DNA of 64,000 nt from Escherichia virus TH44 (MT446415.1), one strand, 5' to 3'. Counted from the stretch's first letter, positions 19,370 through 59,306 are shown. The notes: generated by a model not told the origin, from the letters alone. Program-made: numbers and translations.

Positions 19370-19387
19370 ATGGGGCTTCGGCCCCAT
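19370..19387 (+). other. stable hairpin ATGGGGC-UUCG-GCCCCAT without U-tract
   Basis: core GGGGCTTCGGCCCC identical to copies at 49516 and 59293. Confidence 0.6.
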
Positions 19388-19422
19388 GGAGTACAAAGTA
19401 GAAACTAATATGAGGAAAATAT

Positions 19423-20382
19423 ATGTTAACGGTTAATGACAAAGAATTCATGTGGGAACAAAAATACCGCCCAGGTACATTATCAGAGTGTATTCTCCCG
19501 GCTCATGATAAAGAAACATTAGAGGCGATTGTTAAAAAAGGTTTGATTCCTAACTTGATTCTGGTCAGTAGTTCTCCTGGCACTGGTAAGACAACAGTTG
19601 CAAAAGCTATGTGCGCAGATACGAATTCTGATATGCTGTTTGTTAACGGCTCCGATTGTCGAATTGACTTTGTGCGTAATGAATTGACTCGCTTTGCATC
19701 ATCCAAATCAATCGAAGGTCGCCGCAAGGTAATCGTTATCGATGAGTTTGACCGTGCAGGTCTGGCTGAATCACAACGACACCTCCGTAGCTTTATGGAA
19801 GCTTATTCAAGCAACTGTTCAATCATTATGACCGCGAACAATATTGATGGTATCATCACTCCGTTGCAGTCTCGTTGTCGCGTCATTAAGTTCGGTGAAG
19901 CAACTCCGGCTGACCAGACTACCATGATGAAAGAGATGATTCATCGTGCAGTTGCGGTATGTAAAAACGAAGGCGTTGAAATCGAAGACCTGAAAGTTGT
20001 TGCTGCTCTGGTTAAGCATAACTTCCCGGACCTGCGTAAGACAATTAACGAGCTTGACCGTTACTCTGCAAAGGGTGTTATCGATTCTGGTATTCTGAGT
20101 ATCGTGACAAACAATCGCACACCAATTGATGATGTGATTGATGCCCTTAAGGACCGTAACTTTAAAGTTCTCCGTGGCCTGGCTCCTAAGCATGCAAATG
20201 ATTATTCAAGCTTCATTGCAAAGCTGGCTGATGAAATGTATGGTAAACTGACTGGTGCAAGTATCATCCGCATGTATGAGATTGTAGGTGAGAATAATCA
20301 GTACCATGGCATTGCGGCCAATACCGAAGTACACTTGACTTATCTGTTTGCTCAACTGGCTGGGGAAATGAAATGGCTGTAA
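19423..20382 (+). CDS. 44: clamp loader large subunit gp44 (AAA+)
   Basis: 319 aa; Walker A 'SPGTGKTT', Walker B 'VIVIDEFD'. Confidence 0.93.
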   Translation: MLTVNDKEFMWEQKYRPGTLSECILPAHDKETLEAIVKKGLIPNLILVSSSPGTGKTTVAKAMCADTNSDMLFVNGSDCRIDFVRNELTRFASSKSIEGRRKVIVIDEFDRAGLAESQRHLRSFMEAYSSNCSIIMTANNIDGIITPLQSRCRVIKFGEATPADQTTMMKEMIHRAVAVCKNEGVEIEDLKVVAALVKHNFPDLRKTINELDRYSAKGVIDSGILSIVTNNRTPIDDVIDALKDRNFKVLRGLAPKHANDYSSFIAKLADEMYGKLTGASIIRMYEIVGENNQYHGIAANTEVHLTYLFAQLAGEMKWL

Positions 20383-20951
20383 GTCTCTTTGATGATGACG
20401 TTCAATTAAACGAACATGAGGTTGCGTGGAAATCACGCGACTTTAACAAAATTCAGGAATTGTCCGATTCATACAAAGAGAAAGCAGAAAATGAATTGTT
20501 CGCGATTCTTAACGACATAACCGTTAGCAAAAAACCACGGAACCTGATTCAATCAGAAAACTACAATAAATTCTGGCTGGATAACGCATTGAGTCAACAT
20601 GTTGATTGCATCATGCAGGTGAACGTGATGAACTTAATCGGTTCCGGGTTAACAGACCAGCAGCATTATAATTATTTGCTGCATGCAGTTCCACAAGGCA
20701 AGCGTTATGGCAAATGGGCCAAGGCTGAACCGGATGTAGTCAACGTCCAGCTTGTGCTCAAGCTTTTAATGAAATATTATACAATTAATGCAGATGATGC
20801 TTTGATGTATATGGAAACATTGAAAGTCAAAGGTAGTCTTAAAGATGTTTTGAAAAAGACAAAAGGTCTGGTGACGGATGAATTCTTAAAGACCGTTACC
20901 AGTAATGTGAAAGAACAAAAAGAAATTAAAAAACAAATATTGGAATGGTAA
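20373..20951 (+). CDS. 62: clamp loader small subunit gp62
   Basis: 192 aa; overlaps 44 stop, directly upstream of regA. Confidence 0.85.
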   Translation: MAVSLFDDDVQLNEHEVAWKSRDFNKIQELSDSYKEKAENELFAILNDITVSKKPRNLIQSENYNKFWLDNALSQHVDCIMQVNVMNLIGSGLTDQQHYNYLLHAVPQGKRYGKWAKAEPDVVNVQLVLKLLMKYYTINADDALMYMETLKVKGSLKDVLKKTKGLVTDEFLKTVTSNVKEQKEIKKQILEW

Positions 20952-20952
20952 A

Positions 20953-21321
20953 ATGATTGAAATTACATTAAAGCAACCTGAAGACTTCCTGAAAGTTAAA
21001 GAAACTCTGACCCGTATGGGCATCGCAAATAATAAAGACCGTGTGCTGTACCAGAGCTGCCACATCCTCCAGAAGCAAGGTCGTTATTATATTGTTCACT
21101 TCAAAGAAATGCTGCGCATGGATGGTCGTCAGGTTGATATTGACGGCGAAGACTACCAGCGCCGTGATTCCATTGCTCAACTGCTCGAAGACTGGGGCTT
21201 AATCGCTATTAAAGAAGAAGAGCATAATGAATTGTTCGCAGTAACAAATAACTTCCGTGTTATCTCATTCAAACAAAAAGACGACTGGAAGCTCGTAGCC
21301 AAATATACAATTGGTAATTGA
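20953..21321 (+). CDS. regA: translational repressor RegA
   Basis: 122 aa; matches T4 RegA as recalled (MIEITLK.PEDFLKVKETLTRMGIANNKD). Confidence 0.9.
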   Translation: MIEITLKQPEDFLKVKETLTRMGIANNKDRVLYQSCHILQKQGRYYIVHFKEMLRMDGRQVDIDGEDYQRRDSIAQLLEDWGLIAIKEEEHNELFAVTNNFRVISFKQKDDWKLVAKYTIGN

Positions 21322-21538
21322 TATGAAGCATGAAATTGAAACATGTGAACGCCTTAAAGAAGTATACGGACTTTCCCCAACTCAAACTATTTTTGACCTT
21401 TCCGAAGAACTTCAAATAGAATTTCAAAAGGAACTCAATAAATTATTGCATCCTGGTCAGAGAGTCTTCCAGGCTATGGTTAGAACTAAAGATGAAACTG
21501 GTAATCCGACTATCGAACGTCGTACAATAGAAATTTAA
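21311..21538 (+). CDS. hypothetical protein
   Basis: 75 aa between regA and 43. Confidence 0.45.
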   Translation: MVIDMKHEIETCERLKEVYGLSPTQTIFDLSEELQIEFQKELNKLLHPGQRVFQAMVRTKDETGNPTIERRTIEI

Positions 21539-21543
21539 AGCAA

Positions 21544-21563
21544 AGGGACTTCGGTCCCTTTTG
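21544..21563 (+). terminator. rho-independent terminator
   Basis: agggac-ttcg-gtccct + TTTT, followed by TATAAT. Confidence 0.65.
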
Positions 21564-21623
21564 TAGTATAATAGCGTCAAGTCATAAAACAAAAGTCAAT
21601 CACTCGACTATAAAGGAAACCAA

Positions 21624-24338
21624 ATGCAAGAATTTTATTTAACTATCGAACAAATTGGTGACAATCTGCTCGAACGATACATTGACAAGAACGGTCATGA
21701 ACGTGTTCGTGAAATCCCTTATGCTCCATGCTTGTTTATGCACGCCCGGGAAGGTCAGGCTGCAAAGTATACAGACATCTATAATAAAGGTTGTGTGAAA
21801 AAAGAATTCGATTCCATGCGTGATGCGTCCCAGTGGATGAAGCGAATGAATGACATGGGTCTCGAAGCTATGGGTATGGATGACTTTAAACTCGCATACT
21901 TGTCCGACCGTTACCCGCACGAAATCAAATATGATTCAAGTAAAATCCGTGTTGCTAACTTCGATATCGAGGTGACATCTCCCGATGGGTTCCCTGAACC
22001 GTCTGAAGCACGTCACCCTATTGATGCCCTGACGCACTATGATTCGGTAGACGATAAATTCTATGTCTTTGACCTTTTGGGCTCACCATACGCCACTGTG
22101 GAGCAATGGTCTATTGATATTGCTGCTAAGCTACAGGAAGACGGCGGTGATGAAGTCCCTGAAGAAATCCTGGAAAAAATTGTTTATATGGCTTTCGATT
22201 CAGAAGAAGAAATGCTCCAGCAGTATTTGGTATTCTGGAACGAGAAAACTCCGGTTATGCTAACTGGTTGGAACATCGAGAAGTTTGATATTCCATATAT
22301 CTACAACCGCCTTAAAAATATATTTGGTGAAGCTACAGCAAAACGTCTGAGCCCACATCGTCGTACAAAAGTTAAGGTCATTAACAACGGCTTTGGTGAA
22401 GAACAAGAAATCATTCAGATTCTGGGTATCTCTGTTCTGGATTATCTGGACCTGTATAAAAAGTTCAGCTTCACAAACCAACCGTCTTATTCGTTGGATT
22501 ATGTTGCGGAATCTGAACTTGGTGTTGGTAAACTCCCGTATGATGGCCCGATTTCTAAACTGCGTGAATCAAATCACCAGCGGTATATTTCTTATAACAT
22601 CATCGACGTTTATCGTGTTGTGCAGATTGACCGTAAGCGGCAGTTTATTAACCTGAGCCAGTCAATGGGTTATTATGCAAAAATGCAGATTCAGTCTGTA
22701 TTCAGCCCAATCAAAACTTGGGATGCGATTATCTTTAACAGCCTGAAGACTCAAAACAAAGTCATTCCGGAAACCAAATCGCATGTTCGTCAATCGTTCC
22801 CTGGTGCATTTGTTAAGGAACCGATTCCGAACGCATACAAATATGTAATGAGCTGTGACTTAACATCTCTGTATCCGAGCATTATCCGACAGATTAACAT
22901 CAGTCCAGAAACGATTGCCGGTTCATTTGCACCAGCCCAGATGTATGAATACATCGCAGGAACTGCTGACCGTCCATCTGATACATTTAGTTGTGCTCCA
23001 AATGGTATGATGTATTTTAAAGATGTTGCGGGTATTATTCCGACAGAAGTCACCAAGGTGTTTAATCAGCGTAAAGAACACAAAGGCTATATGCTTGCGG
23101 CTCAACGTAATGGTGAACTGATTAAGGAAGCTCTGCGTAATCCAGGAACGGGTACAACCGAGCCTGAAGTTGATTATCGTTATGACTTTGATGACAATAT
23201 GAAAACGGCCCTGCATGGTCTGAATCAAACAGTCCTGAATGGTATGCTGTACAAAGCGCAGATGGAAGAAGTTGCAGGCATGACCGCACAGATTAACCGT
23301 AAACTGCTTATCAACAGTTGTTATGGCGCTCTGGGCAATATCTGGTTCCGTTACTTTGACCTGCGAAATGCGACCGCGATTACATCTTTCGGACAACTTG
23401 CATTGCAGTGGATTGAGCGTAAAGTTAACGAATACTTCGATAGTGTTTGTGGGACAAGCGGCGAAACTTATGTGTTCTATGGCGATACTGACTCCATTTA
23501 TATCCAGTGCGATAACCTTATTAAAAAGGTTGGTGGTGAATCTAAATTCCGTGATACAAACCACCTGGTTGACTTCATGGACAAGTTTGCGAAAGACCGC
23601 CTGGAACCGGCAATCGATAAAGCTTTCCGTGAGCTGGCTGAATACATGAACAACAAACAGCATCTTATGTTTATGGACCGTGAAGCGATTGCATGTCCTC
23701 CGCTGGGTTCTAAAGGTGTGGGTGGATTCTGGACGGCGAAGAAACGTTATGCGCTGAACGTGTACGATATGGAAGGCACACGTTATGCTGTTCCGAAATT
23801 GAAAATCATGGGTCTGGAAACTCAAAAGTCGAGTACTCCAAAGGCATGTCAGAAAGCTCTGAAAGAATGTATCCGCCGTATGCTGCAAGAAGGTGAAGAA
23901 TCCCTGCAGACATACTTCAAGGAATTCAATAAGGAATTTAATGAGCTTAACTATATGACCATCGCGGGTGTATCATCGGTTAACAACATCCAGAAATATA
24001 ATGAAGGTGGTTTCCCTGGATTTAAGTGCCCGGCTCATATCAAAGGTGTGCTTGCATATATGCGTGCAACTAAAGGTCTGAAGACTGTTCCGCAAATCAT
24101 GGAAGGGGAAAAGGTGTATGTACTTCCTCTTAAAGTCGGCAACCCGTTTGGTGAAACCGTGATTGCATGGCCATCTGGGATTGAACTCCCGATTGAAATC
24201 CGTGACCAGGTTCTGCAGTGGATGGATTACAGTGCTTTGTTCCAGAAGACTTTTGTTAAGCCGTTATCAGGTTTCTCTGAAGCTGCAAAGGTTGATTACG
24301 AAAAGAAAGCAACTCTTTTTGACATGTTCGACTTTTAA
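21624..24338 (+). CDS. 43: DNA polymerase gp43 (family B)
   Basis: 904 aa; exonuclease 'FDIE', polymerase 'YGDTDS' motifs; uninterrupted. Confidence 0.96.
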   Translation: MQEFYLTIEQIGDNLLERYIDKNGHERVREIPYAPCLFMHAREGQAAKYTDIYNKGCVKKEFDSMRDASQWMKRMNDMGLEAMGMDDFKLAYLSDRYPHEIKYDSSKIRVANFDIEVTSPDGFPEPSEARHPIDALTHYDSVDDKFYVFDLLGSPYATVEQWSIDIAAKLQEDGGDEVPEEILEKIVYMAFDSEEEMLQQYLVFWNEKTPVMLTGWNIEKFDIPYIYNRLKNIFGEATAKRLSPHRRTKVKVINNGFGEEQEIIQILGISVLDYLDLYKKFSFTNQPSYSLDYVAESELGVGKLPYDGPISKLRESNHQRYISYNIIDVYRVVQIDRKRQFINLSQSMGYYAKMQIQSVFSPIKTWDAIIFNSLKTQNKVIPETKSHVRQSFPGAFVKEPIPNAYKYVMSCDLTSLYPSIIRQINISPETIAGSFAPAQMYEYIAGTADRPSDTFSCAPNGMMYFKDVAGIIPTEVTKVFNQRKEHKGYMLAAQRNGELIKEALRNPGTGTTEPEVDYRYDFDDNMKTALHGLNQTVLNGMLYKAQMEEVAGMTAQINRKLLINSCYGALGNIWFRYFDLRNATAITSFGQLALQWIERKVNEYFDSVCGTSGETYVFYGDTDSIYIQCDNLIKKVGGESKFRDTNHLVDFMDKFAKDRLEPAIDKAFRELAEYMNNKQHLMFMDREAIACPPLGSKGVGGFWTAKKRYALNVYDMEGTRYAVPKLKIMGLETQKSSTPKACQKALKECIRRMLQEGEESLQTYFKEFNKEFNELNYMTIAGVSSVNNIQKYNEGGFPGFKCPAHIKGVLAYMRATKGLKTVPQIMEGEKVYVLPLKVGNPFGETVIAWPSGIELPIEIRDQVLQWMDYSALFQKTFVKPLSGFSEAAKVDYEKKATLFDMFDF

Positions 24339-24407
24339 GTGTTTACAACGGCAATGGATTGCCGTATTATTACCTCATCAACTGATGAATAACTTAAGGA
24401 TATTAAA

Positions 24408-24650
24408 ATGGAAACATTAATTGCGGGTACTGTTGTTCTTGGTGCAGGTTCTTTCTTCCTGGCTGCACTGGCATATTTTCTGCCGTGGATTATCGCGCTG
24501 CTGCGTGGTACCAAAAGTAATTGTGGAATCTTCTTTGTTAACCTCCTGATAGGTTGGACAATGGTCGGATGGTTTATTGCATTTATCTGGGCACTCGTTG
24601 CTGAACGTAAATCAAACGCACAAGTAATTATCATCAAGGAAGCAAAATGA
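24408..24650 (+). CDS. small membrane protein (position of T4 imm)
   Basis: 80 aa, two transmembrane helices; homology to Imm not established. Confidence 0.5.
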   Translation: METLIAGTVVLGAGSFFLAALAYFLPWIIALLRGTKSNCGIFFVNLLIGWTMVGWFIAFIWALVAERKSNAQVIIIKEAK

Positions 24651-24798
24651 AGATAATTACAATTATTGTACTGATTGCATTTTTTAGTATGTCAATCTAT
24701 TGGGCAATAATGACTCCACATATGATTCCAACTTTAATTTTGGGTTGGGTATTTTTGGGGCTCCAAGCCCGCTATGAATGTTTTAATTAGGAAGCAAA

Positions 24799-25302
24799 AT
24801 GAAAAAGTTAGCTATCGCAGCTGTTATGCTGCTATCTGGTTGTGCTTACCAGGGTGATGTTGTTAATGCCAACGAGATTGGTAAAGCGCGAATTGCTGCA
24901 GACCGTCAGGTGCATAATGGTTCCTTTGATTTCAAAGGTGGTACTGGACTTATCTACAAACGCGACAACAATCAATGTGGAAACAACTGCGCGAAATATG
25001 CTCAACAAGAAATTGAGTACAAACGCGAGCAAGCTGCGAAGCATGACGAAATCATTGCCAAGCTGGAAGCAGAAACCAAGCGACAAAATGACCTGGATAC
25101 TGTTAACCAGATTTCACAGGTCTGCATGTCATATATCAATATGCAGATAAACATCATGCGCGCAGAAGCTTATCAGGCAGCGGAGACGGGTTCTCCAAAA
25201 GCTAATGAGTACCGCGATATGTATCAGCGTTCTGCTCAAAACCGTCTGAGCTATATTAATAAATGTGTAGCTAAAGAGAAAGCACGCCAAGGTATTAACT
25301 GA
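24799..25302 (+). CDS. putative lipoprotein
   Basis: 167 aa; signal peptide with lipobox 'LLSGC'. Confidence 0.55.
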   Translation: MKKLAIAAVMLLSGCAYQGDVVNANEIGKARIAADRQVHNGSFDFKGGTGLIYKRDNNQCGNNCAKYAQQEIEYKREQAAKHDEIIAKLEAETKRQNDLDTVNQISQVCMSYINMQINIMRAEAYQAAETGSPKANEYRDMYQRSAQNRLSYINKCVAKEKARQGIN

Positions 25303-25566
25303 TGTTATTATTACTTCTGATTGTTGTAACAGTAATTGGTTTGTTGCTATTAGAAAAGCGTAATAAGCATTTGGCTGAAGAAAACTGGAAACGTGGTAAC
25401 GTTTACTAAATTACTCTGAACTGCGAGAAAAATATTATGATTGGTGCGCTATTGATTAGTCTGTGGCTGTTGTCTGCATTTGGTATTGGTTTTATGTACT
25501 GGTGGGACAAACGTCAGACCCGGAAGATTGTTGAACGTGCAATTAATCGTGGTTTCAATCGTTAAT

Positions 25567-25591
25567 TGCTCTAAAAATACAGTGATATAAT
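25567..25591 (+). promoter_or_regulatory. middle-type promoter upstream of uvsX
   Basis: TGCTCTA box, 12-bp spacer, TATAAT. Confidence 0.4.
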
Positions 25592-25644
25592 TATCCTATC
25601 TTAAACCTGTGAGAAAAATATAATGGTGCCTATGGAAAAAATGA

Positions 25645-27157: not shown

Positions 27158-28581
27158 AAACTATTTTATCCCAGCTACTCTTTAACAAGGAATATTTTGT
27201 TAAAGTCTGGCCATATCTGAATAACACATATTTTGAAAAGGGTCCTGCAAAGACCCTTTTTAATACGATTAACGAACACGTAAAAGAATATCAAGCGGTA
27301 CCAACTAAGACTGCACTTGATATCGCGCTCGACAGTTCTGACCTTTCTGAAGTCGAATATGAAGGCACAAAGAAACTCTTAGGAGTCCTGGCCGATACTC
27401 CAGAAGACCAGGAATGGTTGGTTAAAGAAACCGAGAAGTATGTGCAGAAGTCTGCGATGTTCAATGCCACATCCAGGATTATCGAAATCCAGAGTAATGC
27501 CGAACTTCCGAAAGACAAACGTGATAAACGAATCCCGGATATTGGCGCTATCCCCGACATCATGCGCGATGCATTGTCTATCTGTTTTGACTCTGCTCTG
27601 GGTCATGACTGGTTAAACGATTACGAAGCTCGATTCCAGACTTATCTGAACAAATCGAAGAAGGTTCCGTTCCGTATTAACATCCTGAATAAAATCACAA
27701 AGGGTGGGGTTGAGTACGGTACAGAGAACGTTTTACTGGCCGGGACAAACGTCGGGAAATCCCTTGGACTTTGTTCGTTAGCGGCTGACTATCTTCAGAC
27801 TGGCCATAATGTGCTTTATATAAGCATGGAAATGGCAGAAGAAGTATGTGCCAAGCGTATTGACGCCAACTTGCTGGATGTATCTCTGGATGATATTGAT
27901 GAAGGTCATATATCGTGGGCAGAATACAAAGCTAAGATGGAAAAATGGCGTGCAGCAGGGACTCTTGGGACTCTGAAGATAAAACAATATCCAACTGGCG
28001 GTGCTCATGCGGATACCTTTCGTGCATTGCTGAATGAATACAAACTGAAGCAAGGGTTTGTGCCGGATGTGATTATTGTTGACTACCTAGCAATCTGTGC
28101 AAGCTCAAGACTGAAAACGTTTACCGAAAACAGTTACGGTCTGATTAAGATGGTTGCAGAAGAACTTCGTGGTCTGGCGGTCGAGAAAAATGTGGTCCTG
28201 TGGACTGCAGCACAGACAACCAGGGGTGCGAACGTTGCAGCTGAGATTGATATGGCTGACATCGCAGAATCATTTGGTATTGCTCACACGGCCGACTTTA
28301 TGTTGGGTGTTGTTGAGACCGAAGAATTCGCTCAAATGGGACTACAGTTAATCAAACAGCTTAAGTCTCGTTATGGCGATAAGAACTACTATAATAAATT
28401 CAAGATGGGTGTTAAGAAAGGTAATCAGCGCTGGTATGAGGTTGATGATGATTCAGCTCCTAAACAAGGCCCTACGGTTAAAGAAGCCACTGGTGAGATG
28501 AATCGCCAGGCTGAAATGAATAGACAAACCAGGGTCAACAGGAGCGACCTGGACGACCTTGCTGCTCAAATGAAATTCTAA
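27142..28581 (+). CDS. 41: replicative DNA helicase gp41 (DnaB-like)
   Basis: 479 aa; Walker A 'GTNVGKSLG', RecA-like core. Confidence 0.94.
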   Translation: MVEVVETILSQLLFNKEYFVKVWPYLNNTYFEKGPAKTLFNTINEHVKEYQAVPTKTALDIALDSSDLSEVEYEGTKKLLGVLADTPEDQEWLVKETEKYVQKSAMFNATSRIIEIQSNAELPKDKRDKRIPDIGAIPDIMRDALSICFDSALGHDWLNDYEARFQTYLNKSKKVPFRINILNKITKGGVEYGTENVLLAGTNVGKSLGLCSLAADYLQTGHNVLYISMEMAEEVCAKRIDANLLDVSLDDIDEGHISWAEYKAKMEKWRAAGTLGTLKIKQYPTGGAHADTFRALLNEYKLKQGFVPDVIIVDYLAICASSRLKTFTENSYGLIKMVAEELRGLAVEKNVVLWTAAQTTRGANVAAEIDMADIAESFGIAHTADFMLGVVETEEFAQMGLQLIKQLKSRYGDKNYYNKFKMGVKKGNQRWYEVDDDSAPKQGPTVKEATGEMNRQAEMNRQTRVNRSDLDDLAAQMKF

Positions 28582-29892: not shown

Positions 29893-30234
29893 ATGACTTT
29901 TAATCCAGAAGACCGCGTAAAAGTAACAATCAAAGTGAGTGCCGTTGGCGTTCCATCTTTTGAGCGCTCAAGTATGTTCCATCCCGCAGGTATTCACTGG
30001 TATGTCCAGAAGACTGCTGATAACTATAATGCACTGGTTGAAGCTTTTGTTGATGACAAGCTAATTCATAAAGTAGACATGCGTAAGGGTACTGCATTGC
30101 GTAATCTGATTTTGACCGTTGAAGCTCAACTGGTAAATGAAGAAATCTGCCTTACTGATATTGAAGCGGCTCTTCATATTGCGCGTGCTGAATATTACAA
30201 CTTGACTGGTTTTTCAGTTGAAGGTGAAAAATAA
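29893..30234 (+). CDS. hypothetical protein, paralog of previous ORF
   Basis: 113 aa. Confidence 0.5.
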   Translation: MTFNPEDRVKVTIKVSAVGVPSFERSSMFHPAGIHWYVQKTADNYNALVEAFVDDKLIHKVDMRKGTALRNLILTVEAQLVNEEICLTDIEAALHIARAEYYNLTGFSVEGEK

Positions 30235-31789: not shown

Positions 31790-32008
31790 ATAGCGGAAAG
31801 GGGGTGTTATGAAAACATTCAAAGATTTTATCAACGAAGATATGGTTGCTGGTGACGCAGGTGGAAACCCAACTAATATCGCAACAGGTACCACTTCCGG
31901 GGCAGTTGTCAATAAAGGCCCTGAACAAATCCCATCAAAAAAGCGTAAGAACAAAGACGATAAACCTACAGTATAATGGTCCTCCGGGACCATTGAAATG
32001 AGGAAACT

Positions 32009-41942: not shown

Positions 41943-41971
41943 TGTGCAAACTCTTGGGTCCAGAGTATAAT
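41943..41971 (+). promoter_or_regulatory. class-C promoter (-10 inside palindrome)
   Basis: tgtgca..cttgggtccagagtataatggtccc. Confidence 0.55.
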
Positions 41972-48533: not shown

Positions 48534-49508
48534 ATGTTTAATATCAAATGTATGTCTAAAGCCGAACAAGAACGAGTTGTCTCTCTTTATGAATCTGGTA
48601 ACTATACGCAAGACGAACTTGCACTCGGTTTCGGTGTATCGGTTGACACCATTCGCCGCGTTTTGAAAAATGATAAAGAATCAAAATTAGCTAAAACCAT
48701 TTCTGCATCATTGAAAGCCGCTGTCGGGGTGGCGATTAATGCTCCAGTGACAGTAACGGTTGAAGTTCCGATTGTTGAAGATACAATCGGCGGTAGCCGT
48801 CCAGAAATCGTATGGAACGCATCAAGCAAATTCGTTTCCATCACTGAAGGTCGTACAGTCTGGAACGCAACAAAAGACCATAAACACTTTGATGATATTA
48901 TTCAGGCATTGATTGAATTCCGTTATGAAGATGCTATCGAGTTTATCTCAATCAAAGCTGCAGTACAAAAATATGTGAAAGGTGATGTGCGTATTGAAGG
49001 TGGTAGTCTGTTCTATCAGGGAATTGAACTGCGTTCTGGCCTGGTTACTCGTATCATTGATTCAATGCAAAATGGCGAAGACTTTGAATTCTATCTGCCG
49101 TTCCTTGAGAATCTCCTTGAGAACCCGAGTGAGAAAGCCGTACAGCGTTTGTTTGACTTCCTGGTTGCGAACGATATCGAAATCACCGAAGACGGTCATT
49201 TCATCGCATGGAAAATGGTTCGTGCAACTTACAAAGATTGCCACTCAAACACATTCGACAACAGCCCTGGTCAATATGTTAAAATGCCGCGCTCTCGTGT
49301 GAATGACAATGACGAACAGACCTGTTCAACCGGGTTGCATGTTTGCTCTAAAGGCTATATCGGAAGTGGTTTTGGTCATGGTGATGGACGCATCGTATCC
49401 TGTAAAGTTCACCCGCGTGATGTTGTAAGTATCCCGGTTGATTATAACGATTCCAAAATGCGGGTCTGTGGTTACCTGGTTCTTGATGATGTAACTGAAC
49501 AATTCTAA
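48534..49508 (+). CDS. rIIB: rIIB protein
   Basis: 324 aa; directly downstream of rIIA. Confidence 0.85.
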   Translation: MFNIKCMSKAEQERVVSLYESGNYTQDELALGFGVSVDTIRRVLKNDKESKLAKTISASLKAAVGVAINAPVTVTVEVPIVEDTIGGSRPEIVWNASSKFVSITEGRTVWNATKDHKHFDDIIQALIEFRYEDAIEFISIKAAVQKYVKGDVRIEGGSLFYQGIELRSGLVTRIIDSMQNGEDFEFYLPFLENLLENPSEKAVQRLFDFLVANDIEITEDGHFIAWKMVRATYKDCHSNTFDNSPGQYVKMPRSRVNDNDEQTCSTGLHVCSKGYIGSGFGHGDGRIVSCKVHPRDVVSIPVDYNDSKMRVCGYLVLDDVTEQF

Positions 49509-49515: not shown

Positions 49516-49529
49516 GGGGCTTCGGCCCC
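49516..49529 (+). other. hairpin GGGGC-UUCG-GCCCC without U-tract
   Basis: identical to 19372..19385 core. Confidence 0.6.
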
Positions 49530-49742
49530 TAATGAGGCTTTATGTTAGGTTTCCAAGCACGTGTAGTTGAAGAACATGACCAGTTGGTTTTGAAAATTAA
49601 TGCTCTTGAAGAATTTATTAAAGGCGGTGTTTTTGAAACTCTCGATGCTCGTCAACAAGGTCTTTTGATTGCACAACTCGATGCGATGGGTGCTTATGCT
49701 CATGTACTGGCAGTCCGTATCTCTTATTTTGGTGAATAAATT

Positions 49743-50984: not shown

Positions 50985-50995
50985 TTAAAAAGTAG

Positions 50996-51968: not shown

Positions 51969-52210
51969 AACTTTTTAAAGACATTGCAGTTGGTGAAAAA
52001 TTTGTCCTGGGTAATGGTCAACAACTGATTCGCATTTCGCCTTTAATGGATAACAGTGAACGCCCTGTGCGCACTGAAAACTGTTTGGATTATCCTTTTT
52101 ATCAGAAGCGTTTTGCAATTGAAAATAATACTGAGTGTTTCACAGTTGATGAACTGATGGAATCATCAGAAGAAGTTGACTTGTGGGATGGCGCAGTTGA
52201 TGTAGAATAG
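51965..52210 (+). CDS. hypothetical protein
   Basis: 81 aa ORF. Confidence 0.45.
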   Translation: MKLFKDIAVGEKFVLGNGQQLIRISPLMDNSERPVRTENCLDYPFYQKRFAIENNTECFTVDELMESSEEVDLWDGAVDVE

Positions 52211-52239
52211 TGTACAAACTCTTGGGAGCAGAGTATAAT
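52211..52239 (+). promoter_or_regulatory. class-C promoter (-10 inside palindrome)
   Basis: tgtaca..cttgggagcagagtataatgctcccag. Confidence 0.6.
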
Positions 52240-52278
52240 GCTCCCAGTGGATAATAAAATTTAACTGAGGAAATCATT

Positions 52279-52623
52279 ATGTCTAAAGTATTTTTTGGTA
52301 ATCGCAACATTATGTTCTTTAAACAGATTAGCGTATCAGAAGCATTTGATTTAAGTTATTCGGGCGGCACAAAAGCTGTTAACCTTAAAAATTTGATGTC
52401 TGCAGAATTTGCATTCTATCAGGACCCTGAAACTGGTTTCTACAAATTTATTAAGTTCCGCATGACTATGGACCGCGATTATCGTGATGTTTATTATACA
52501 AGTTATGAAAGTGTTGTGAATGCAATTCGTGAAGCTTATGGATTGGATTCGTTATCTCTTGACCGCCTGTATAATGCAAGCCTTTACACCAGCGGATTTA
52601 TTTTAGAACAGCTTCAAAAATAG
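52279..52623 (+). CDS. hypothetical protein
   Basis: 114 aa ORF. Confidence 0.5.
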   Translation: MSKVFFGNRNIMFFKQISVSEAFDLSYSGGTKAVNLKNLMSAEFAFYQDPETGFYKFIKFRMTMDRDYRDVYYTSYESVVNAIREAYGLDSLSLDRLYNASLYTSGFILEQLQK

Positions 52624-52652
52624 TGTACAAACTCTTGGGGTCAGAGTATAAT
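52624..52652 (+). promoter_or_regulatory. class-C promoter (-10 inside palindrome)
   Basis: tgtaca..cttggggtcagagtataatgaccccac. Confidence 0.6.
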
Positions 52653-52696
52653 GACCCCACTGGAGCACAAAACTTTAACTTACTGAGGAAATTAAT

Positions 52697-53146
52697 ATGA
52701 ATACTTACATGACCCGTCGTGACGTACTGAATGCTGGCGCTACCACTGTTGCTTACATCCATAATGGTAATTATGTCGCCGGTCGCCCAACTAAAGAAGC
52801 TATCACCCAACCGGGTTTTTATTTTGTAGTTAAGGGTGAAGGTGAATCGCGTATTGTTGCGGCACGTTTTTACGTTGGTAACCAACGTTCACAACAAGGG
52901 TTTGACACTGTATTAAGTCACATCCGCAAACAGCGTTCACAACTGTCGCGCACAATGGCGAACAATGGTGTTATCTATGAAGTTCTGTTTGTTCCGGTTT
53001 CTAAAATGAAGCCTCTGACAACTGGTTATGGTAAAGGTCAAATTGCAATGGCGTTCACTCGCTCACATAGTTCTGATTGCCAGACCCTTTCAGAAATGAA
53101 TCGCATGCTTGCTGATAACTTTAAATTCATTCTGCAGAGCTATTAA
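52697..53146 (+). CDS. ndd: nucleoid disruption protein Ndd
   Basis: 149 aa; '[28 protein letters not shown]...[17 protein letters not shown]...[12 protein letters not shown]' matches T4 Ndd as recalled. Confidence 0.8.
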
Positions 53147-53147
53147 T

Positions 53148-53321
53148 ATGAGACATTTCTTTACAATGGGTTACTTATTTGTTTTAGCACTATTTGTTAT
53201 TACAGGAGCCTTTATAGCCTTTGGCGCTCCATTTAATGATAAAGTTGCTGTTACTATGTGCTTTAGTGGCGGATTTATCTGTTTTGAACGTTTATGTAAA
53301 ATGTGTGGTATATATGAGTAA
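53148..53321 (+). CDS. small membrane protein
   Basis: ~58 aa, hydrophobic. Confidence 0.4.
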
Positions 53322-53705
53322 TTTCCATAATGAACATGTGATGCAATGGCATCGCCATAATCTGAAATTAACTGGCGTCTTTGGACGCCCTTGAGGAAAA
53401 TATGATTATTCTGGCTTTTATCGAACTTATTATTGCCGTGGTTTGTTCAGTCTGCTTCTTTTTAGGAGTCTGGACTCCAAGCACATTTTTCATGGGCGCG
53501 ATGTTTATTGCATGGGTTATTTCTGGAATTGTAAGTCTGGCGCGGTATGCGAAAAAATGATTAAGAAAATCTTGGGCTACTCGTTAGCCCTTGCTGCCTT
53601 ATTGGTAGCGCTGTATTATGGAGTTGTATTTGCATTAGTGCAGGTTGTGCTTTTTATTTCTGATGCTATAATGGCAGTACATTCGTTAATCTGGTAAGGT
53701 GATAT

Positions 53706-55085
53706 ATGTCTGACGTTTTAAGTATGATGTCCAAACAGTTCAGTGATTCCATGGGGACCCTTAACCCACGCAGTCTAAAAGACATTATTGATGTGGAAGC
53801 ATTATCATATGCTATCTACACTGTGGAAGGTCGCGCAATCCCAAACATGATTGATGGTTTTAAACCAGTTCACAGATTTGTTATGGCGAGAGCATTAGAC
53901 CTGGCACGTGGTGATAAGAATAAATTCCATAAGGTTGCATCCATCGCAGGTGGCGTAGCTGATTATGGTTATCACCATGGCGAAGCATCAGCGGAAGAAG
54001 CAACTTCTGGTCTGGTCGCAACATATAAAAATGAATACCCCATGTTTGATGGACAAGGCAACTTTGGTTCCAGAATGGTGCCAGAAGCATCATCAGCTCG
54101 TTATGTATTCGCACGGGTTTCAAAGAACTTTTATAACTTGTTTAAGGATACAGAATATGCTCCGGTCCATCCTGATGAAGAACATAAGCCTCCTGCTTTT
54201 TATCTTCCTGTTATTCCTACTGTATTACTTAACGCCACTTCTGGGATTGCTGTTGGCTTCGCTACTGATATTCTGCCTCATTCGTTCCAGGACGTCAAGG
54301 AAGCTGTTAAAGCTATCGTGGAAGGTCGGGAGCCGGTTGCTCCGAAAGTAAAATATCCAGAATTCCGCGGTAAAGTTGTTGAGCTGGAAGAGCCTGGTAA
54401 GTATGAGCTTCATGGCACGTACAAAATGACTTCCAGGACCCAAATGGAAATTACTGAAATCCCGGTCCAATGGAACCTGGAAAAGTATACAAGTAAAATC
54501 CTGGACCCGCTGGAAGAGAAAGGTTTTATCACCTGGAAAGATAACTGCGGCGAGCATGGTTTTGGGTTTAAGATTAAATTCCGCAAAGAATACAAGCTGG
54601 ATGGCACCGAAGAAGAAAATCATGAGAAAATCATGAAAGACTTTGGTCTGATTGAGAAGCTCTCCCAGAACTTAACAGTGCTTAATCACAAAGGCAAGCT
54701 GGCTGAATACACCAACACGCTTGACCTGATTCGTGATTTCGTTGATGTCCGTAAGACTTATGTTCAAGTGCGAATTGACAGTAAGATTAAAGAAACTGAA
54801 GCGGCATTTAAACTGGCCCGGGCAAAAGTCTTCTTTATTAAAGAAGTGATTGATGGTAAAGTTGTTATCCAGGGGAAACCTCGTAAGAAGTTGATTGAGG
54901 AACTCCAGGCGAGTGAAATATATGGCGATTATGCAGAGAAGTTAGTGGCGATGAACATCTACCATATGACCTCTGATGAAGCTAAGAAGCTTGCGGATGA
55001 AGCTAAGGCTAAGAAAGCTGAGCATGAGTACTGGAAGACAACTGACGTTAAAACTGAATATCTTAATGATTTGGAGGCTCTATGA
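53706..55085 (+). CDS. 52: DNA topoisomerase II medium subunit gp52 (GyrA-like)
   Basis: 459 aa; 'AIPNMIDGFKPVHRF' GyrA-like N-terminus. Confidence 0.93.
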   Translation: MSDVLSMMSKQFSDSMGTLNPRSLKDIIDVEALSYAIYTVEGRAIPNMIDGFKPVHRFVMARALDLARGDKNKFHKVASIAGGVADYGYHHGEASAEEATSGLVATYKNEYPMFDGQGNFGSRMVPEASSARYVFARVSKNFYNLFKDTEYAPVHPDEEHKPPAFYLPVIPTVLLNATSGIAVGFATDILPHSFQDVKEAVKAIVEGREPVAPKVKYPEFRGKVVELEEPGKYELHGTYKMTSRTQMEITEIPVQWNLEKYTSKILDPLEEKGFITWKDNCGEHGFGFKIKFRKEYKLDGTEEENHEKIMKDFGLIEKLSQNLTVLNHKGKLAEYTNTLDLIRDFVDVRKTYVQVRIDSKIKETEAAFKLARAKVFFIKEVIDGKVVIQGKPRKKLIEELQASEIYGDYAEKLVAMNIYHMTSDEAKKLADEAKAKKAEHEYWKTTDVKTEYLNDLEAL

Positions 55086-55176
55086 GCATAGAAAATGAAT
55101 ACGCAGTGATTTGTGCTGCTGTAGCTGGCCTGTTGATTGCCTGGGTTATTGGCAAAGTGATTGATTCTTAAAAACT

Positions 55177-55200
55177 AGGACCCTTCAGGGTCCTTTTTTA
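55177..55200 (+). terminator. rho-independent terminator
   Basis: aggaccc-ttca-gggtcct + TTTTTT. Confidence 0.75.
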
Positions 55201-55214
55201 TTTTAAAAAAGTAG

Positions 55215-55243
55215 TGTACAATCCCCTTGTCTTAGGACATAAT
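55215..55243 (+). promoter_or_regulatory. early-type promoter with class-A leader
   Basis: near-identical to 28920..28948 cassette. Confidence 0.6.
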
Positions 55244-55292
55244 GATTCCATACTGAGTTACACAATGAATCACAAAAACTTTGGAGAATAAA

Positions 55293-55508
55293 ATGTTTAC
55301 TGCACAACAGAATGAAGGTCAAGAATACATCAACGCTAAATTCAAATCTAACAAAGAAGCTTGCTATTACTACTTTGATATGTTCAAACTGGCGAATTCT
55401 AAAGAAGAACGTAAACAAGCGATTGATGTGATTGTTTCTACTTCCCATATGAAACGTACTGTAGTACAATCATATGCATCAAATTACATGAAATCTATTA
55501 AGGGATAA
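55293..55508 (+). CDS. hypothetical protein
   Basis: 72 aa; GGAGA SD. Confidence 0.5.
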   Translation: MFTAQQNEGQEYINAKFKSNKEACYYYFDMFKLANSKEERKQAIDVIVSTSHMKRTVVQSYASNYMKSIKG

Positions 55509-55510
55509 TT

Positions 55511-56119
55511 GTGAACAAGTTAAATTATATCGTTAAATGCTCCCAGAACGCGCTGCATGAGACTGATGTTAATGCTCTGGTGTTTGTATACAAAAACAAC
55601 TTCGTGAGTCCAGAGGTTGTTTTAGACCAGCAGAATACATCAATTGATAGTGTGCAGACATTGTTGAATAACAACTATGTTGAAGCTTCTGGTGATGGTT
55701 TGATGGTTACAGAAAAGGGTGTTGACCTTATTCTGGATGCAGCTGAACTTTGGGCGAATGAAAATAATCCTGACCTTCTGGAAGTGAAGAAGACAAGAAC
55801 AAAACGCGGTGTGACTGATGAAATGGAAGCGACTGCAGAATATATCAAAGAGCAATTGTTGTCTATTGGTATTGACTTTAAGAGCATTTCAGAAGACCGC
55901 AGCAATCTGATTGTGAAGTTCAAGCGTGTCAAGACATTAAAACAGATTGATGTTCGTCGTGATGGTCAGATTCGCGTACATGCGTATAATACTGAACAAA
56001 AGATAGTAAAACAGTTTACAGACGTGGGATTTAGCGTTAAAGTAGGTGGATTGAATACCTACATTGACAACGTTATGTCAACTGAAAACATTCAACATGT
56101 TATTAACATCTTAAAGTGA
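55511..56119 (+). CDS. motA: middle-transcription activator MotA
   Basis: 202 aa, GTG start; 'EASGDGLMVTEKG' resembles T4 MotA 'EKSGDGLIITGE' as recalled. Confidence 0.8.
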   Translation: MNKLNYIVKCSQNALHETDVNALVFVYKNNFVSPEVVLDQQNTSIDSVQTLLNNNYVEASGDGLMVTEKGVDLILDAAELWANENNPDLLEVKKTRTKRGVTDEMEATAEYIKEQLLSIGIDFKSISEDRSNLIVKFKRVKTLKQIDVRRDGQIRVHAYNTEQKIVKQFTDVGFSVKVGGLNTYIDNVMSTENIQHVINILK

Positions 56120-56126
56120 GGAAATT

Positions 56127-56459
56127 ATGAATAAGCTGAATATTGTTAATGAATTGCGTGCTTGTGTAGAACCTACTCAAGAGGGTTGGGATGTTTGGTA
56201 TCATGGCGCTTACCTTGGAACTATTGTCAAGGTCAAAGCTGGTCAGTATCTTATCCATCGTCAGGATGATGCAGTAGCTCCGTTTGGTGCACGCAAGAAC
56301 TTCATGGCAGCGATTGGTGCCTTTGTTCCAGCAGCATATGAAGTATATAAAGCTGACTACAAAGAATATCAGGAATCACAACCAGTTATTCGCTCAATTG
56401 GTGTTAATAAAGCTCAACAGAAAAGTCTGTGGCAACGTGTTAAAGGTTGGTTCAAATGA
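56127..56459 (+). CDS. hypothetical protein
   Basis: 110 aa ORF. Confidence 0.5.
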
Positions 56460-56944
56460 ATCCATTAAAAGGTAAAGAATTATCCTTTAAAGACCGTATG
56501 GCCTTATTGGATAAAGCTCTTTCTCGCGAGACTCCCGAAAGTCTCGCTGCTAAATTACGGGCATATGGTGATTACACCGAATATACTGAAGAAGATGTTC
56601 TGGAAGAGGTTCCGGAAATCTGTTGGCAGATTGCTCATTGGAACAACAATGAAAAATATCAGCGCCGGATTGTATGCGCTGCCAACCGCTTTAAGTTAAA
56701 AGATGGTGGGACTCTGGTTATTCCTGGTGCCAGACATTATTCCAAGGATATGGCAGAAGTGCTTGACCAGGTAAGTGATAAACTTGTGTCAGACCATGTT
56801 TGTGGTGATAACCAAGGGTTTATTGACCAATACAGCAATTACTGGACCCGTGAAGAAGCAATGATTATTGCGACTTATGCAAATCAGGTGCGTATTGAAC
56901 GTGGCGGTAGTGAGAAAGAACTTTATTCAGAGGACCTTTATTAA
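56447..56944 (+). CDS. hypothetical protein
   Basis: 165 aa ORF. Confidence 0.5.
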
Positions 56945-57222
56945 TGAACCTTAAACAACTCCAAATTGATGCAATCGAAAACCATATCAATCATATCAAA
57001 CGTCTGAACACCATGATGGAAGACAACTGGGGAACTTATGTTAACCAGCCGGCTTGGGATGCGTTAGACCATGAATATATAAAGGATATTAGTGATAACA
57101 CGTATAGAGTTAGAGAAGGTCTGAAACCCTTCCTGCGTGATATGTATATTGCAACAAATAAAGCAATTATTAACTATCTTGAATACAAATTAAGGGAATT
57201 GCATGAACAACCTGGTAGCTAA
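56944..57222 (+). CDS. hypothetical protein
   Basis: 92 aa ORF. Confidence 0.5.
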   Translation: MNLKQLQIDAIENHINHIKRLNTMMEDNWGTYVNQPAWDALDHEYIKDISDNTYRVREGLKPFLRDMYIATNKAIINYLEYKLRELHEQPGS

Positions 57223-57534
57223 GCACGATTTCAATAAGGCGTCTGTCCATAAGGATAAGAAGAAAACTGAAATGCAGTCCAAACGTAAGCAGAAGCACAA
57301 GGGGAATCACTATGAGTCATAACTTAGAGAACACCATCACTGGTCAGCGTACACGCGAGCAGGCTTGCTTTGAGGAATTCCTTGGAGCTGATTTTAAGTT
57401 CCAGGAACCAGTTGAACAGATGTATCAGGAATATGTTGTACAGATGGAAAATCATGTGTACAACCCAGAGGAATAATAGTACAATATCCTTACTGAATAA
57501 TTGAATGTCTTATTGAATACTTGAGTAAATTAAA

Positions 57535-57810
57535 ATGACTAAATTTGAAATCGTTTCTGAAATTGTTACTGTAACTTCAATTTTGATTAAAACCGACCGG
57601 GAAGATATTACGATGAAGCGTGATGTGTTTATCGCGTTTTTGAATGAGTTGGGATTGAGGAATGAGAATGGTAATGAGTTAAACAATGTATCGTTTAACA
57701 AGTTGTTTAAAAGTTTATCTGAAGATGAAATTGAACAAATCATTGAACAATTTAACGAAGGATTCGAAGATATACACCGTTATCTTATGATGTATACCTC
57801 CGGATTCTAA
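57535..57810 (+). CDS. asiA: anti-sigma70 factor AsiA
   Basis: 91 aa; 'REI.TV.SILIK..REDI......FIAFLNE.G...E...L...SF.K....L...........FNEGFE...RYL.MYT' matches T4 AsiA as recalled. Confidence 0.9.
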   Translation: MTKFEIVSEIVTVTSILIKTDREDITMKRDVFIAFLNELGLRNENGNELNNVSFNKLFKSLSEDEIEQIIEQFNEGFEDIHRYLMMYTSGF

Positions 57811-58460
57811 CGTGTACGCCCGAGCGTACGACCTGCTTGTCCACACATAGCAGAAAGCCTATCAAAACTAAGGTTAGGTTTTTGCTTATACCAGTACAGC
57901 GAAACTGTGCCTGCATAAACGTTTTCCAAATTAAAGAATGGGCAGCTAAACATATATGCGAAGCTGCTTTTTTTCTTTGTTGGTAAGAATACAGATTCCG
58001 TACTGGATTCAAAATAATTACCATTAACCCCCGCCAAATATTCCGCCGAAGTTTTATCTATTGGAAACCCACCTAAATTTTTTTCGTCGACTGTATCAGG
58101 CAATATCCCCTCATATCCCACCATATCCACAAAGTAGTTAAGGTTAGTTGGTCTAAAAGAATATATTGCTGTAAAGTCTGCCCCACTTGACGAGTGGACT
58201 ATCTGGATTTGCTCGATAGCTGCAATTTTAAATCTGTTATCCTGGTCTTGCCTTATCATTTCAGTGTATGAGGCATATGAAGCATCCCTGTACGCATCTA
58301 AAAGTGCATCACCTTTATACCAGATTACCGCCATTAAAAATAATAGAACAATAACTAGTACCCGGGAAAAAACAACTTTCCCGGTCGCATTATCTTTAAA
58401 AATTCTATCAAGAAGTCCAAAAAGTAGGTCGGGTATTGATATTCCTACTTTTGGTTCCAT
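57807..58460 (-). CDS. t: holin T
   Basis: 217 aa; 'DLLFG.LDR.FKDNATGKV', 'Y.G.....Y.......Y.E.I', 'CP.FNL.N.YAGT...YWY' match T4 holin as recalled. Confidence 0.9.
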   Translation of the reverse strand: MEPKVGISIPDLLFGLLDRIFKDNATGKVVFSRVLVIVLLFLMAVIWYKGDALLDAYRDASYASYTEMIRQDQDNRFKIAAIEQIQIVHSSSGADFTAIYSFRPTNLNYFVDMVGYEGILPDTVDEKNLGGFPIDKTSAEYLAGVNGNYFESSTESVFLPTKKKSSFAYMFSCPFFNLENVYAGTVSLYWYKQKPNLSFDRLSAMCGQAGRTLGRTR

Positions 58461-58478
58461 ACTTTTCTCCTTTAAAGA

Positions 58479-58486
58479 TATTTATA
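58479..58486 (-). promoter_or_regulatory. late promoter TATAAATA for t
   Basis: exact TATAAATA on minus strand ~20 nt upstream of the t start. Confidence 0.6.
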
Positions 58487-58497
58487 GCGCTTATGTA

Positions 58498-59280
58498 CTA
58501 TAGCCAAGACCCATAGATAGTGCCTGTGGCGCCCCATGAAGGGGAACTTCCGAATACCGCGCGTCCGGCTCCGCCCTGCGAGCCGTATGTAACGCTTCGT
58601 CCATAAGCGCCTCCACCAGCCCCGCCCGCGTCGCCACCATTACCACCACCCCACTGTCCGCCAAAGCTACCACCGCCACCTGGTCCGGTATAACTAGCGT
58701 TGCCACCTGGGTTTACGGCACCATTAGTACCACCTAATCCATATGGTCTACCGCCACCGCCACCAGCAGTACCAGCTTCAAGCCAAGAGTTATTTGAAGC
58801 ACATCCGGCACCACCGCCGCCACCTGAAGCTATAACACCATAGTTCCAAATACGGAGTCTGCCTCCAATGTCGTTTTGAATTACATCACCACCATTTGTA
58901 TCGGCTATCCAAACACGGGTCCCACCATTACCGCCGCGTCCCCACATATGAACACCACCATGAATATTCAAAGTAACGTATTCATTAGGAGTATCGCCGT
59001 ACATAAAGAACAATGGAACATCTTTAGTATAAGATACTAAATCACCTGTGATATTAAACACAATAGGTGCAGCACCGGCTTCAAAACAACGGTCTCTAAA
59101 CCATTGTCCGTTAAAGTTGTGGTCCGCCCCAAGTGTATGAATTACTTCAACAGACCGACCTATCATATTACTCATCCAAAACGGAATACCCATTCTCAAT
59201 CGTTGGGCCGCGCCGCCCATCCAATTTTGTCCGGTATTAACTGCTGCAGACCATCCTACCCACGGTCCTTCAACTGCCAT
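58498..59280 (-). CDS. 38: T2-type gp38 receptor-binding adhesin with glycine-rich motifs
   Basis: 260 aa from ATG with GGAGG SD; multiple poly-Gly blocks typical of T2/K3-type gp38. Confidence 0.8.
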
Positions 59281-59292
59281 ATAAACCTCCAA

Positions 59293-59306
59293 GGGGCCGA
59301 AGCCCC
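59293..59306 (-). other. hairpin GGGGC-UUCG-GCCCC between 37 stop and 38 SD
   Basis: third identical copy of the 14-nt hairpin. Confidence 0.6.

Follow-up and report, generated by a model that had tools for sequence, protein, structure and literature searches.

Location and structure of the hairpins

The DNA analyzed is a 64,000-nucleotide stretch of Escherichia virus TH44 (MT446415.1), referred to below as the window and numbered from its first letter, and the elements under study are three copies of the 14-nt sequence GGGGCTTCGGCCCC, a GC-stemmed hairpin capped by a UUCG tetraloop. Three exact matches are present in the window, at 19372-19385 and 49516-49529 on the plus strand and at 59293-59306 on the minus strand (sites 1, 2 and 3, respectively). 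The sequence was absent from all 100 dinucleotide-preserving shuffles of the window, which rules out a chance origin of the three. Site 1 lies between genes 45 and 44, site 2 between rIIB and a denB.1 homologue, and site 3 between genes 37 and 38 (Table 1). An initial annotation of this DNA had described three identical copies in these contexts; the exact matches and the shuffles bear out the copies, and the open reading frame (ORF) map, Pfam and comparison with T4 confirmed the genes around them.

All three hairpins occupy the gap between a stop codon and the next Shine-Dalgarno (SD) sequence. Since the coding strand of the window changes from plus to minus at about 57.4 kb, each hairpin is in the sense orientation relative to its flanking genes and to local transcription. 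The site 1 hairpin is 24 nt from the SD and 35 nt from the ATG of gene 44. At site 2 the hairpin is 7 nt past the rIIB stop, 4 nt ahead of the SD of the denB.1 homologue and 12 nt ahead of its ATG, and at site 3 it directly follows the double stop of gene 37 and directly precedes the SD of gene 38. In each case the SD is 3' of the hairpin, with a spacing to the ATG of 5 nt at site 3 and 4-7 nt at sites 1 and 2.

The isolated 14-mer has a predicted fold energy of -9.6 kcal/mol. In folds of about 120 nt of context all three hairpins were present in the minimum free energy and centroid structures alike, and no longer helix enclosed the stems. A search allowing two mismatches returned one extra site, GGGACTTCGGTCCC (21545-21558, plus strand), in which one pair is changed in a compensatory manner (GGGAC/GUCCC). 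The flanks of the three copies share no similarity outside the hairpin other than generic stop-codon and SD features, and a dispersed repeat or mobile element was ruled out because the three flanks are unrelated. An Rfam search of the whole window at the gathering threshold gave no match to any curated family.

Table 1. Hairpins and flanking features in the window
Feature	Position	Strand	Description
gp45 double stop, TAATAA	19364-19369	+	upstream gene product with gp45 sliding-clamp Pfam domains
Site 1 hairpin, AUGGGGC(UUCG)GCCCCAU	19370..19387	+	7-bp stem; abuts gp45 double stop
GGAGUACAAAG motif	19388..19398	+	directly 3' of site 1 hairpin; not the gene 44 SD; candidate RegB site or pseudo-ribosome-binding site
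Gene 44 SD (GAGG) and ATG	19412-19415 (SD), 19423-19425 (ATG)	+	Gp44 Pfam domains, clamp loader
regA/gene 43 variant, AAAGGGAC(UUCG)GUCCCUUU then UUUUG	21542..21561	+	d = 1.1; marginal intrinsic terminator
rIIB stop	49506-49508	+	protein 62% identical to T4 RIIB
Site 2 hairpin, GGGGC(UUCG)GCCCC	49516..49529	+	5-bp stem; between rIIB and denB.1 homologue
denB.1 homologue, SD GAGG (49534-49537), ATG at 49542	49542-49739	+	65 aa, 50% identical to T4 DenB.1
gp38, SD GGAGG and ATG	59290-59286 (SD), 59280-59278 (ATG)	-	T2-type adhesin, GP38 adhesin Pfam domain
Site 3 hairpin, GAGGGGC(UUCG)GCCCCUU	59291..59308	-	7-bp stem including one G-U pair; 37/38 gap
Gene 37, double stop at 59314-59309	59315-62614	-	long tail fibre, 1100 aa
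Other sense C(UUCG)G hairpins	2790, 21542, 28580, 34333, 43653, 45748, 63322 (-)		A-rich 5' flanks, T-runs past stem

Terminator scores and orientation of the UUCG hairpins

Intrinsic termination needs a U-rich tract directly past the stem. Hairpins of the window were scored with a rough re-implementation of the d'Aubenton-Carafa discriminant, which gives a tail score and a discriminant value (d). The three GGGGC-stem sites had tail scores of 1.0-1.9 and d values of -31, -28 and -16 (sites 1, 2 and 3), well below the threshold, whereas eight of the nine other U-tailed hairpins scored had tail scores of 3.7-5.2 and d above 0; the ninth, at 28580, had a tail score of 4.2 but a d of -6.7. The sequences 3' of the stems are GGAGUACAAA at site 1, UAAUGAGGCU at site 2 and (UU)GGAGGUUUAU at site 3, so that a GC-rich hairpin is present at each site with no U-rich tract immediately 3' of it. 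A simple terminator scanner reported no terminator at the sites on the sense strand of the three regions. The view that these hairpins lack a U-tract and are not classical terminators, already put forward in the initial annotation, was therefore upheld.

Ten strong UUCG hairpins were found in the window, all in sense orientation and, by reading of the ORF map, mostly in intergenic gaps; hairpins with other loops were distributed 79:77 between the two orientations. The three with GGGGC stems are exactly the three UUCG hairpins of the window without a U-tract. The 10:0 sense bias, together with the G-U pairs of the T4 45/44 stem, which exist only in the sense RNA (they are A-C mismatches on the other strand), indicates selection on the mRNA, in agreement with the RNA-level element envisaged at the outset.

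Conservation among relatives

The 45-44 region of the window is 94-98.5% identical to that of SP18/VR7/VR20-type coliphages and Shigella phages; SP18 is classified in the genus Gaprivervirus of the Tevenvirinae, and the window phage is Gaprivervirus-like. Orthologous junctions were gathered from IMG/VR contigs and eleven annotated phage records with gp45 identities of 28-78%, leaving out a Synechococcus phage record in which gene 44 does not come after gene 45. A hairpin was found past the gp45 stop in 17 of 18 distinct relatives, from T4 to Acinetobacter, Aeromonas and KVP40-like phages. Among them the stems with a UUCG loop were GGGGC, GGAGC, AGGGC, GGAGAC, GAUGGUC and UGGGCC, and hairpins with other loops were GGAGGA with GAAA, GGGAGGAA with UUU, and GGGAGC and AAGGGGC with UACG. 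The exact 14-mer is present at 45/44 in a Klebsiella Jiaodavirus.

In an ungapped alignment of seven distinct 45/44 orthologues all seven stem pairs showed compensatory changes and 98% of the cells were paired, a percentage inflated by the centering of each row on the best hairpin of its intergenic region. None of 500 shuffles matched this pairing and no slid register of the alignment came near it.

The other two junctions revealed a similar pattern. At the rIIB 3' end and at 37/38 the stem GGGGC is swapped for GGGCC or GGGAC, and several loop variants occur. At 37/38 a GC hairpin precedes GGAG(G) by 0-3 nt in each of the T2-type gp38 phages sampled, the stem being GGGGC, GGGCC or GGGGGC and the loop UUCG, UUAG, CUCG or a variant of 3-4 nt. 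In close relatives the 37/38 loop is changed from UUCG to UUAG and CUCG with the stem intact, and one close relative carries a GG insertion in the 5' arm past rIIB (CGGGGGGC), indicating that the exact loop is not strictly required. In the closest relatives the hairpin is invariant and the nearby spacer varies.

The hairpin stays with the upstream gene. In VR20, where an inserted ORF of about 190 aa separates the hairpin from gene 44, the hairpin still abuts gene 45; in clades without denB.1 the hairpin is still right past rIIB and is followed by a homologue of the next ORF of the window; and T4 keeps its 37-proximal hairpin despite a gp38 annotated as unrelated to the T2-type adhesin of the window. 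The VR20 insert (MSYICYHTKITNTASNDVYHYFGRH...; VR20 2227-2800 against window 19388-19422) possibly encodes a seg-type homing endonuclease. The SD of the inserted ORF is the GGAG that follows the hairpin (GGAGAAUAAAAUG, a perfect RegB consensus). VR20 and one more relative have a different gp44 N-terminus (MATVINGLTV...).

In more distant relatives the orthologous hairpins are canonical terminators. A U-run follows the 45/44 hairpin in Slopekvirus, Pseudotevenvirus, Krischvirus, an Aeromonas phage and a KVP40-like Vibrio phage, and past rIIB two other clades have UUGGGGAC(UUCG)GUCCCC with UUUUU and AAAGGGCC(UUCG)GGCCCUUU with AUUUUU. This suggests that the hairpins of sites 1 and 2 may descend from intrinsic terminators whose U-tract disappeared, or gave way to ribosome-binding-site sequence, in the compact junctions of T-even-type phages. 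The same terminators could be taken to mean that the window hairpins are leaky attenuators, at which RNA polymerase would sometimes terminate or pause even with the U-tract missing, lowering downstream relative to upstream transcription; the U-rich tail GCCUUUAUAAUUU retained at T4 45/44 and the UU that precedes GGAGGUUUAU at site 3 also point this way. Given tail scores and d values so far under those of the U-tailed hairpins of the window, and the need of intrinsic termination for a U-rich tract, we consider attenuation quite unlikely.

A role at the level of DNA was also weighed, either as module-boundary recombination motifs resembling promoter/stem-loop (PeSL) cassettes or as terminators for antisense transcription. 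PeSL elements are conserved stem-loops at gene boundaries of T4-type genomes (PMC2839356, PMC4122927) that mediate shuffling in these phages (PMC4122927), the VR20 insertion abuts the hairpin, and the simple scanner called all three sites terminator-like on the antisense strand. On the other hand, a PeSL combines its stem-loop with a sigma-70-type early promoter, and a scan of the site regions found no promoter-like hexamers beside the three hairpins; 14 bp is very short for homologous recombination, and only the sense strand has the UUCG loop and the G-U pairs. The antisense calls were rejected as an artefact because their T-rich tails are the reverse complement of TAATAA-type stop codons and are absent from the T4 orthologues and those of another clade; in two of the three scanned regions shuffled sequence also gave about as many terminator-like signals. 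A DNA-level role is thus extremely unlikely.

A motif that does resemble the PeSL promoter/stem-loop cassettes of T4-type phages (PMC4122927) is present elsewhere in the window, where TGTACAAACTCTTGGGnnCAGAGTATAATGnnCCCA occurs in three plus-strand copies (41943-41971, 52211-52260 and 52624-52672). It contains a sigma-70-like -35/-10 pair (TATAAT) and a hairpin with covarying stems (TGGGAGCA/TGCTCCCA versus TGGGGTCA/TGACCCCA), and the -10 falls within the 8-nt hairpin loop (GAGTATAA). Both copies near 52 kb are about 25-35 nt upstream of the SD of a small ORF.

Comparison of the junctions with T4

The T4 genome was assembled from four annotated pieces and its UUCG hairpins were listed. T4 has hairpins at the same three junctions with other stems: GAGGGC(UUCG)GCCUUU at 45/44 (31899-31914), AGAGGGGC(UUCG)GCCCUUCU at 37/38 (159625-159644) and a weaker GGC(UUCG)GCC directly past rIIB. 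The exact GGGGCTTCGGCCCC also occurs three times in T4, at regA/43, e.5/e.6 and past hoc (29952-29969, 69291-69306 and 110165-110182), none of which corresponds to a junction used in the window, and one of these copies has a clear U-tract. One of the T4 copies, that at regA/43, corresponds in the window to the compensatory variant GGGAC/GUCCC.

The T4 37/38 hairpin lies between the SD and the AUG and has been shown experimentally to reduce their spacing from 22 nt to 5 nt, enhancing initiation of gene 38 (PMC3014915, section 29). This precedent makes plausible the mRNA stabilizer or translational modulator suggested in the initial annotation, and raises the possibility that all three hairpins modulate initiation of the downstream gene, by preventing occlusion of the ribosome-binding site, by acting as a standby platform or by limiting termination-reinitiation coupling; the closest cases are the hairpins of T4 genes 38 and 25. 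Consistent with this, an SD-like GGAG or GAGG is found 0-5 nt past the hairpin at all three window sites, and the hairpin-GGAG(G) gap is 0-3 nt in every T2-type gp38 phage sampled. In position, directly past gene 37, and in sequence the site 3 hairpin corresponds to the T4 one. Its arrangement differs, however: in T4 the SD is 5' of the hairpin, whereas in the window the SD GGAGG is 3' of it with a normal spacing of 5 nt, so that the T4 split-site mechanism does not apply, and at none of the three sites does a hairpin between SD and start codon shorten an over-long gap. The gp38 proteins are also of different kinds, an assembly factor in T4 (annotation of the T4 record) and a T2-type adhesin in the window (Pfam). 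Moreover, the gene 44 SD is 24 nt away from the site 1 hairpin, and the hairpin survives replacement of the downstream gene or insertion of another. Modulation of translation is therefore unlikely as a general explanation, and it is a serious rival at 37/38, in view of the T4 case and of the constant 0-3 nt between hairpin and SD.

Some features of the neighboring genes were also noted. Directly past site 2 (49534-49553, plus strand) there is a second predicted hairpin, of 7 bp, in which codons 3-4 of the denB.1 homologue pair with its SD (GAGG) and AUG; this structure possibly damps translation. The homologue matches the Pfam family PF21825 'crAss001_48 related protein' (E = 5e-19), placing the small T4 DenB.1, whose function is unassigned, in a family common to crAss-like phages. 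Residues 990-1049 of gp37 are a C-terminal Peptidase_S74 intramolecular-chaperone domain; the 37/38 hairpin thus comes after a conserved C-terminal module, with the variable receptor-binding function in gp38.

The 14-nt sequence

Perfect identity of the copies had led the initial annotation to propose a sequence-specific function, in which a protein or RNase would read GGGGCUUCGGCCCC itself. In favor of this are the three perfect copies in 64 kb, their coincidence with the three U-tract-less UUCG hairpins and the invariant hairpin of the closest relatives beside a varying spacer. However, orthologous junctions carry other stems and loops, including the UUAG and CUCG loops and the GG insertion, and T4 uses the 14-mer at other junctions, once with a clear U-tract. 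An IMG/VR scan found the exact 14-mer in at least 120 unrelated viral contigs. Among the matches listed the median GC content was 51% (range 33-66%) and the contexts varied; 34 of the 127 occurrences among them had at least six T in the next 9 nt, and several were between a stop codon and an SD-like sequence. The 14-mer accounts for 3 of about 23 UUCG hairpins in T4 (about 13%), and at this rate a binomial estimate gives a probability of about 0.16 for three identical copies among about 11 hairpins.

An RNase III site consists of about 20 bp or more of double-stranded RNA. Stems of 5-7 bp with no longer enclosing helix are too short for this enzyme, and the RNase III processing considered initially is implausible. 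The T4 rate, the unrelated contigs and the unshared flanks indicate that the 14-mer is a commonly reused, near-optimal mini-hairpin and not the signature of a dedicated factor, and a sequence-specific recognition site is very unlikely. Of the initial interpretation, then, the RNA-level, non-terminating element stands and the sequence-specific function is not supported. The identity of the copies probably reflects convergence on the strongest minimal solution, an all-G:C stem of 5 bp closed by a cUUCGg tetraloop.

The GGAG motif after site 1

The motif GGAGUACAAAG that follows the site 1 hairpin is single-stranded in the predicted fold, and several Tevenvirinae clades keep the corresponding GGAGUAYWAAG, as GGAGUAUUAAG or GGAGUAUAAUG. 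RegB targets, some of which lie in leaders and pseudo-ribosome-binding sites, have the RegB/S1 consensus GGAGAAUAAAA (PMC1702504); a target is a single-stranded GGAG with 7 A-rich, C-free nucleotides after it, within an intergenic region of an early transcript. The hairpin and this motif might form a processing module, in which a cut by RegB (or RNase E) would leave the gene 45 mRNA capped by the hairpin and uncoupled from 44-62-regA. The motif, as GGAGUAUUAAG, GGAGUAUAAUG or GGAGUACAAAG, is found 0-2 nt past the hairpin in Gaprivervirus, Dhakavirus and three other clades despite differing stems, it resembles the consensus, and the close relative SP18 has an annotated regB. The window motif agrees with the consensus at positions 1-4, 6 and 8-10; position 7 is C, a base never seen there in cleaved T4 RNAs, and position 11 is G. 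GGAGUAUUAAG of the relatives fits better. T4, one further relative clade and Jiaodavirus have no GGAG here, and the module leaves sites 2 and 3 unexplained. Gene 45 belongs to the middle and late genes. Early transcripts are the main substrates of RegB (PMC3014915). These points make a processing module at site 1 decidedly unlikely.

Other readings of the same spacer were discarded. In some relatives a GUG or AUG past GGAGUAYWAAG gives a start-stop mini-ORF or an in-frame gp44 extension; neither a small ORF nor a longer gp44 N-terminus beginning near the GGAG was accepted, since frame and start codon are not conserved between relatives. A promoter past the 45/44 hairpin was not adopted either: T4 and WG01 have a perfect TATAAT but the window has TACAAA, and on reading the sequence no -35 or MotA box was found at the right spacing past the window hairpin.

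Function of the hairpins

What lies at the three sites is a strand-specific, positionally conserved and covarying RNA hairpin without a terminator tail. We regard it as very probable that the sites are independent members of the known T4 class of extra-stable C(UUCG)G hairpins, which punctuate polycistronic mRNAs in T4-type phages, selected for structure and not for sequence, and that they are not terminators. Each has a UUCG loop closed by a C-G pair on a Watson-Crick stem, is intercistronic and in sense orientation, and belongs to a T4-type genome with Gaprivervirus-type relatives and with hairpins at the same T4 junctions.

With no U-tract, RNA polymerase would be expected to read mostly through the three hairpins, so that 45-44, rIIB-denB.1 and 37-38 would remain co-transcribed. 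The hairpin would then be a functional part of the 3' end of the upstream gene. After an endonucleolytic cut in the AU-rich spacer, or 3' trimming, it could block 3'-to-5' exonucleases and protect the upstream cistron (gp45, rIIB or gp37), and its fast local folding might keep the downstream ribosome-binding site clear of long-range pairing. Intercistronic stabilizers of E. coli operons, such as that of malE-malF, are the basis of the decay-barrier analogy. By this analogy we judge a combined decay-barrier and insulator function to be evenly balanced between right and wrong, and the overall explanation, which joins class and structure with this specific function, to be probable.

Several points weigh against this explanation. 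Its functional part is carried over to the window phage by analogy. Proteus phage SJ_PmiM has a 14-nt spacer and no hairpin at 45/44, indicating that the hairpin is dispensable in some backgrounds, and the pairing percentage of the 45/44 alignment is overstated by the way its rows were centered. It is a mild coincidence that the U-less trio all have GGGGC stems, while the U-less hairpins of T4 vary in stem. Finally, the tight 0-3 nt between hairpin and SD at 37/38 suits a translation-linked role at least equally well.

A more speculative extension, which we consider doubtful, is that in T-even-type clades ancestral terminators past gene 45 and rIIB, having lost the U-tract, took on a new role as read-through decay punctuation. 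The 45/44 hairpin, with GGAGUAYWAAG as a cleavage site for RegB or another endonuclease, would set the ratio of gp45 to gp44/62 mRNA after transcription, and the identical stems would represent a shared optimum against host 3' exonucleases. A literature search for mapped T4 transcript ends at 45/44 found nothing usable.

The analysis adds little new biology, as the CUUCGG hairpins, which led to recognition of the UUCG tetraloop, are here rediscovered in a Gaprivervirus-like relative of T4. For annotation, the hairpins mark cistron boundaries and should not be called terminators, and reverse transcriptase can stall at them in RNA-seq and primer-extension experiments. Of modest evolutionary interest is the full terminator of distant relatives versus the U-less hairpin of T-even phages, the element staying with the upstream gene; comparison of these junctions offers a clean system for the role of a terminator hairpin once termination is lost.

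Comparison with known systems

The T4 CUUCGG hairpins go back to Tuerk et al. 1988 (PNAS 85:1364), as cited in PMC8948821, PMC7165471 and PMC3972237. According to PMC8948821, which cites that work, CUUCGG hairpins are common and mostly intergenic in many phages and especially abundant in T4; they stop reverse transcriptase and have varied roles, including stabilization of gene 32 mRNA. The reverse-transcriptase block and an unusually high melting temperature are reported as properties of the class (PMC8948821, PMC7165471). T4 shows a sense-versus-antisense asymmetry of CTTCGG (PMC7165471) like that of the UUCG hairpins in the window, and T4 intergenic stem-loops, often UUCG-capped, are among the structured RNAs resistant to RegB (PMC1702504). 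The window hairpins share with the T4 CUUCGG hairpins the loop, the closing pair, the short GC-rich stem, the intergenic sense location and the three junctions, and differ in nothing essential: the three U-less hairpins of the window have one stem in common, and the 45/44 and rIIB copies are stronger than those of T4.

With intrinsic terminators the three sites have in common a GC-rich stem and a stable tetraloop just past a stop codon, and their distant Straboviridae orthologues are full terminators; unlike terminators, they have no U-tract and score below the threshold, and no obvious separate promoter serves their downstream genes. The E. coli stabilizers of the repetitive extragenic palindromic (REP)/bacterial interspersed mosaic element (BIME) type, as in malE-malF, are likewise stable intercistronic hairpins proposed to block 3' exonucleases and to protect the upstream cistron. 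REPs, however, are imperfect palindromes of about 35 nt that form a repeated family and have host protein partners, whereas the window hairpins are 14-18 nt long, capped by a tetraloop and unrelated to them in sequence.

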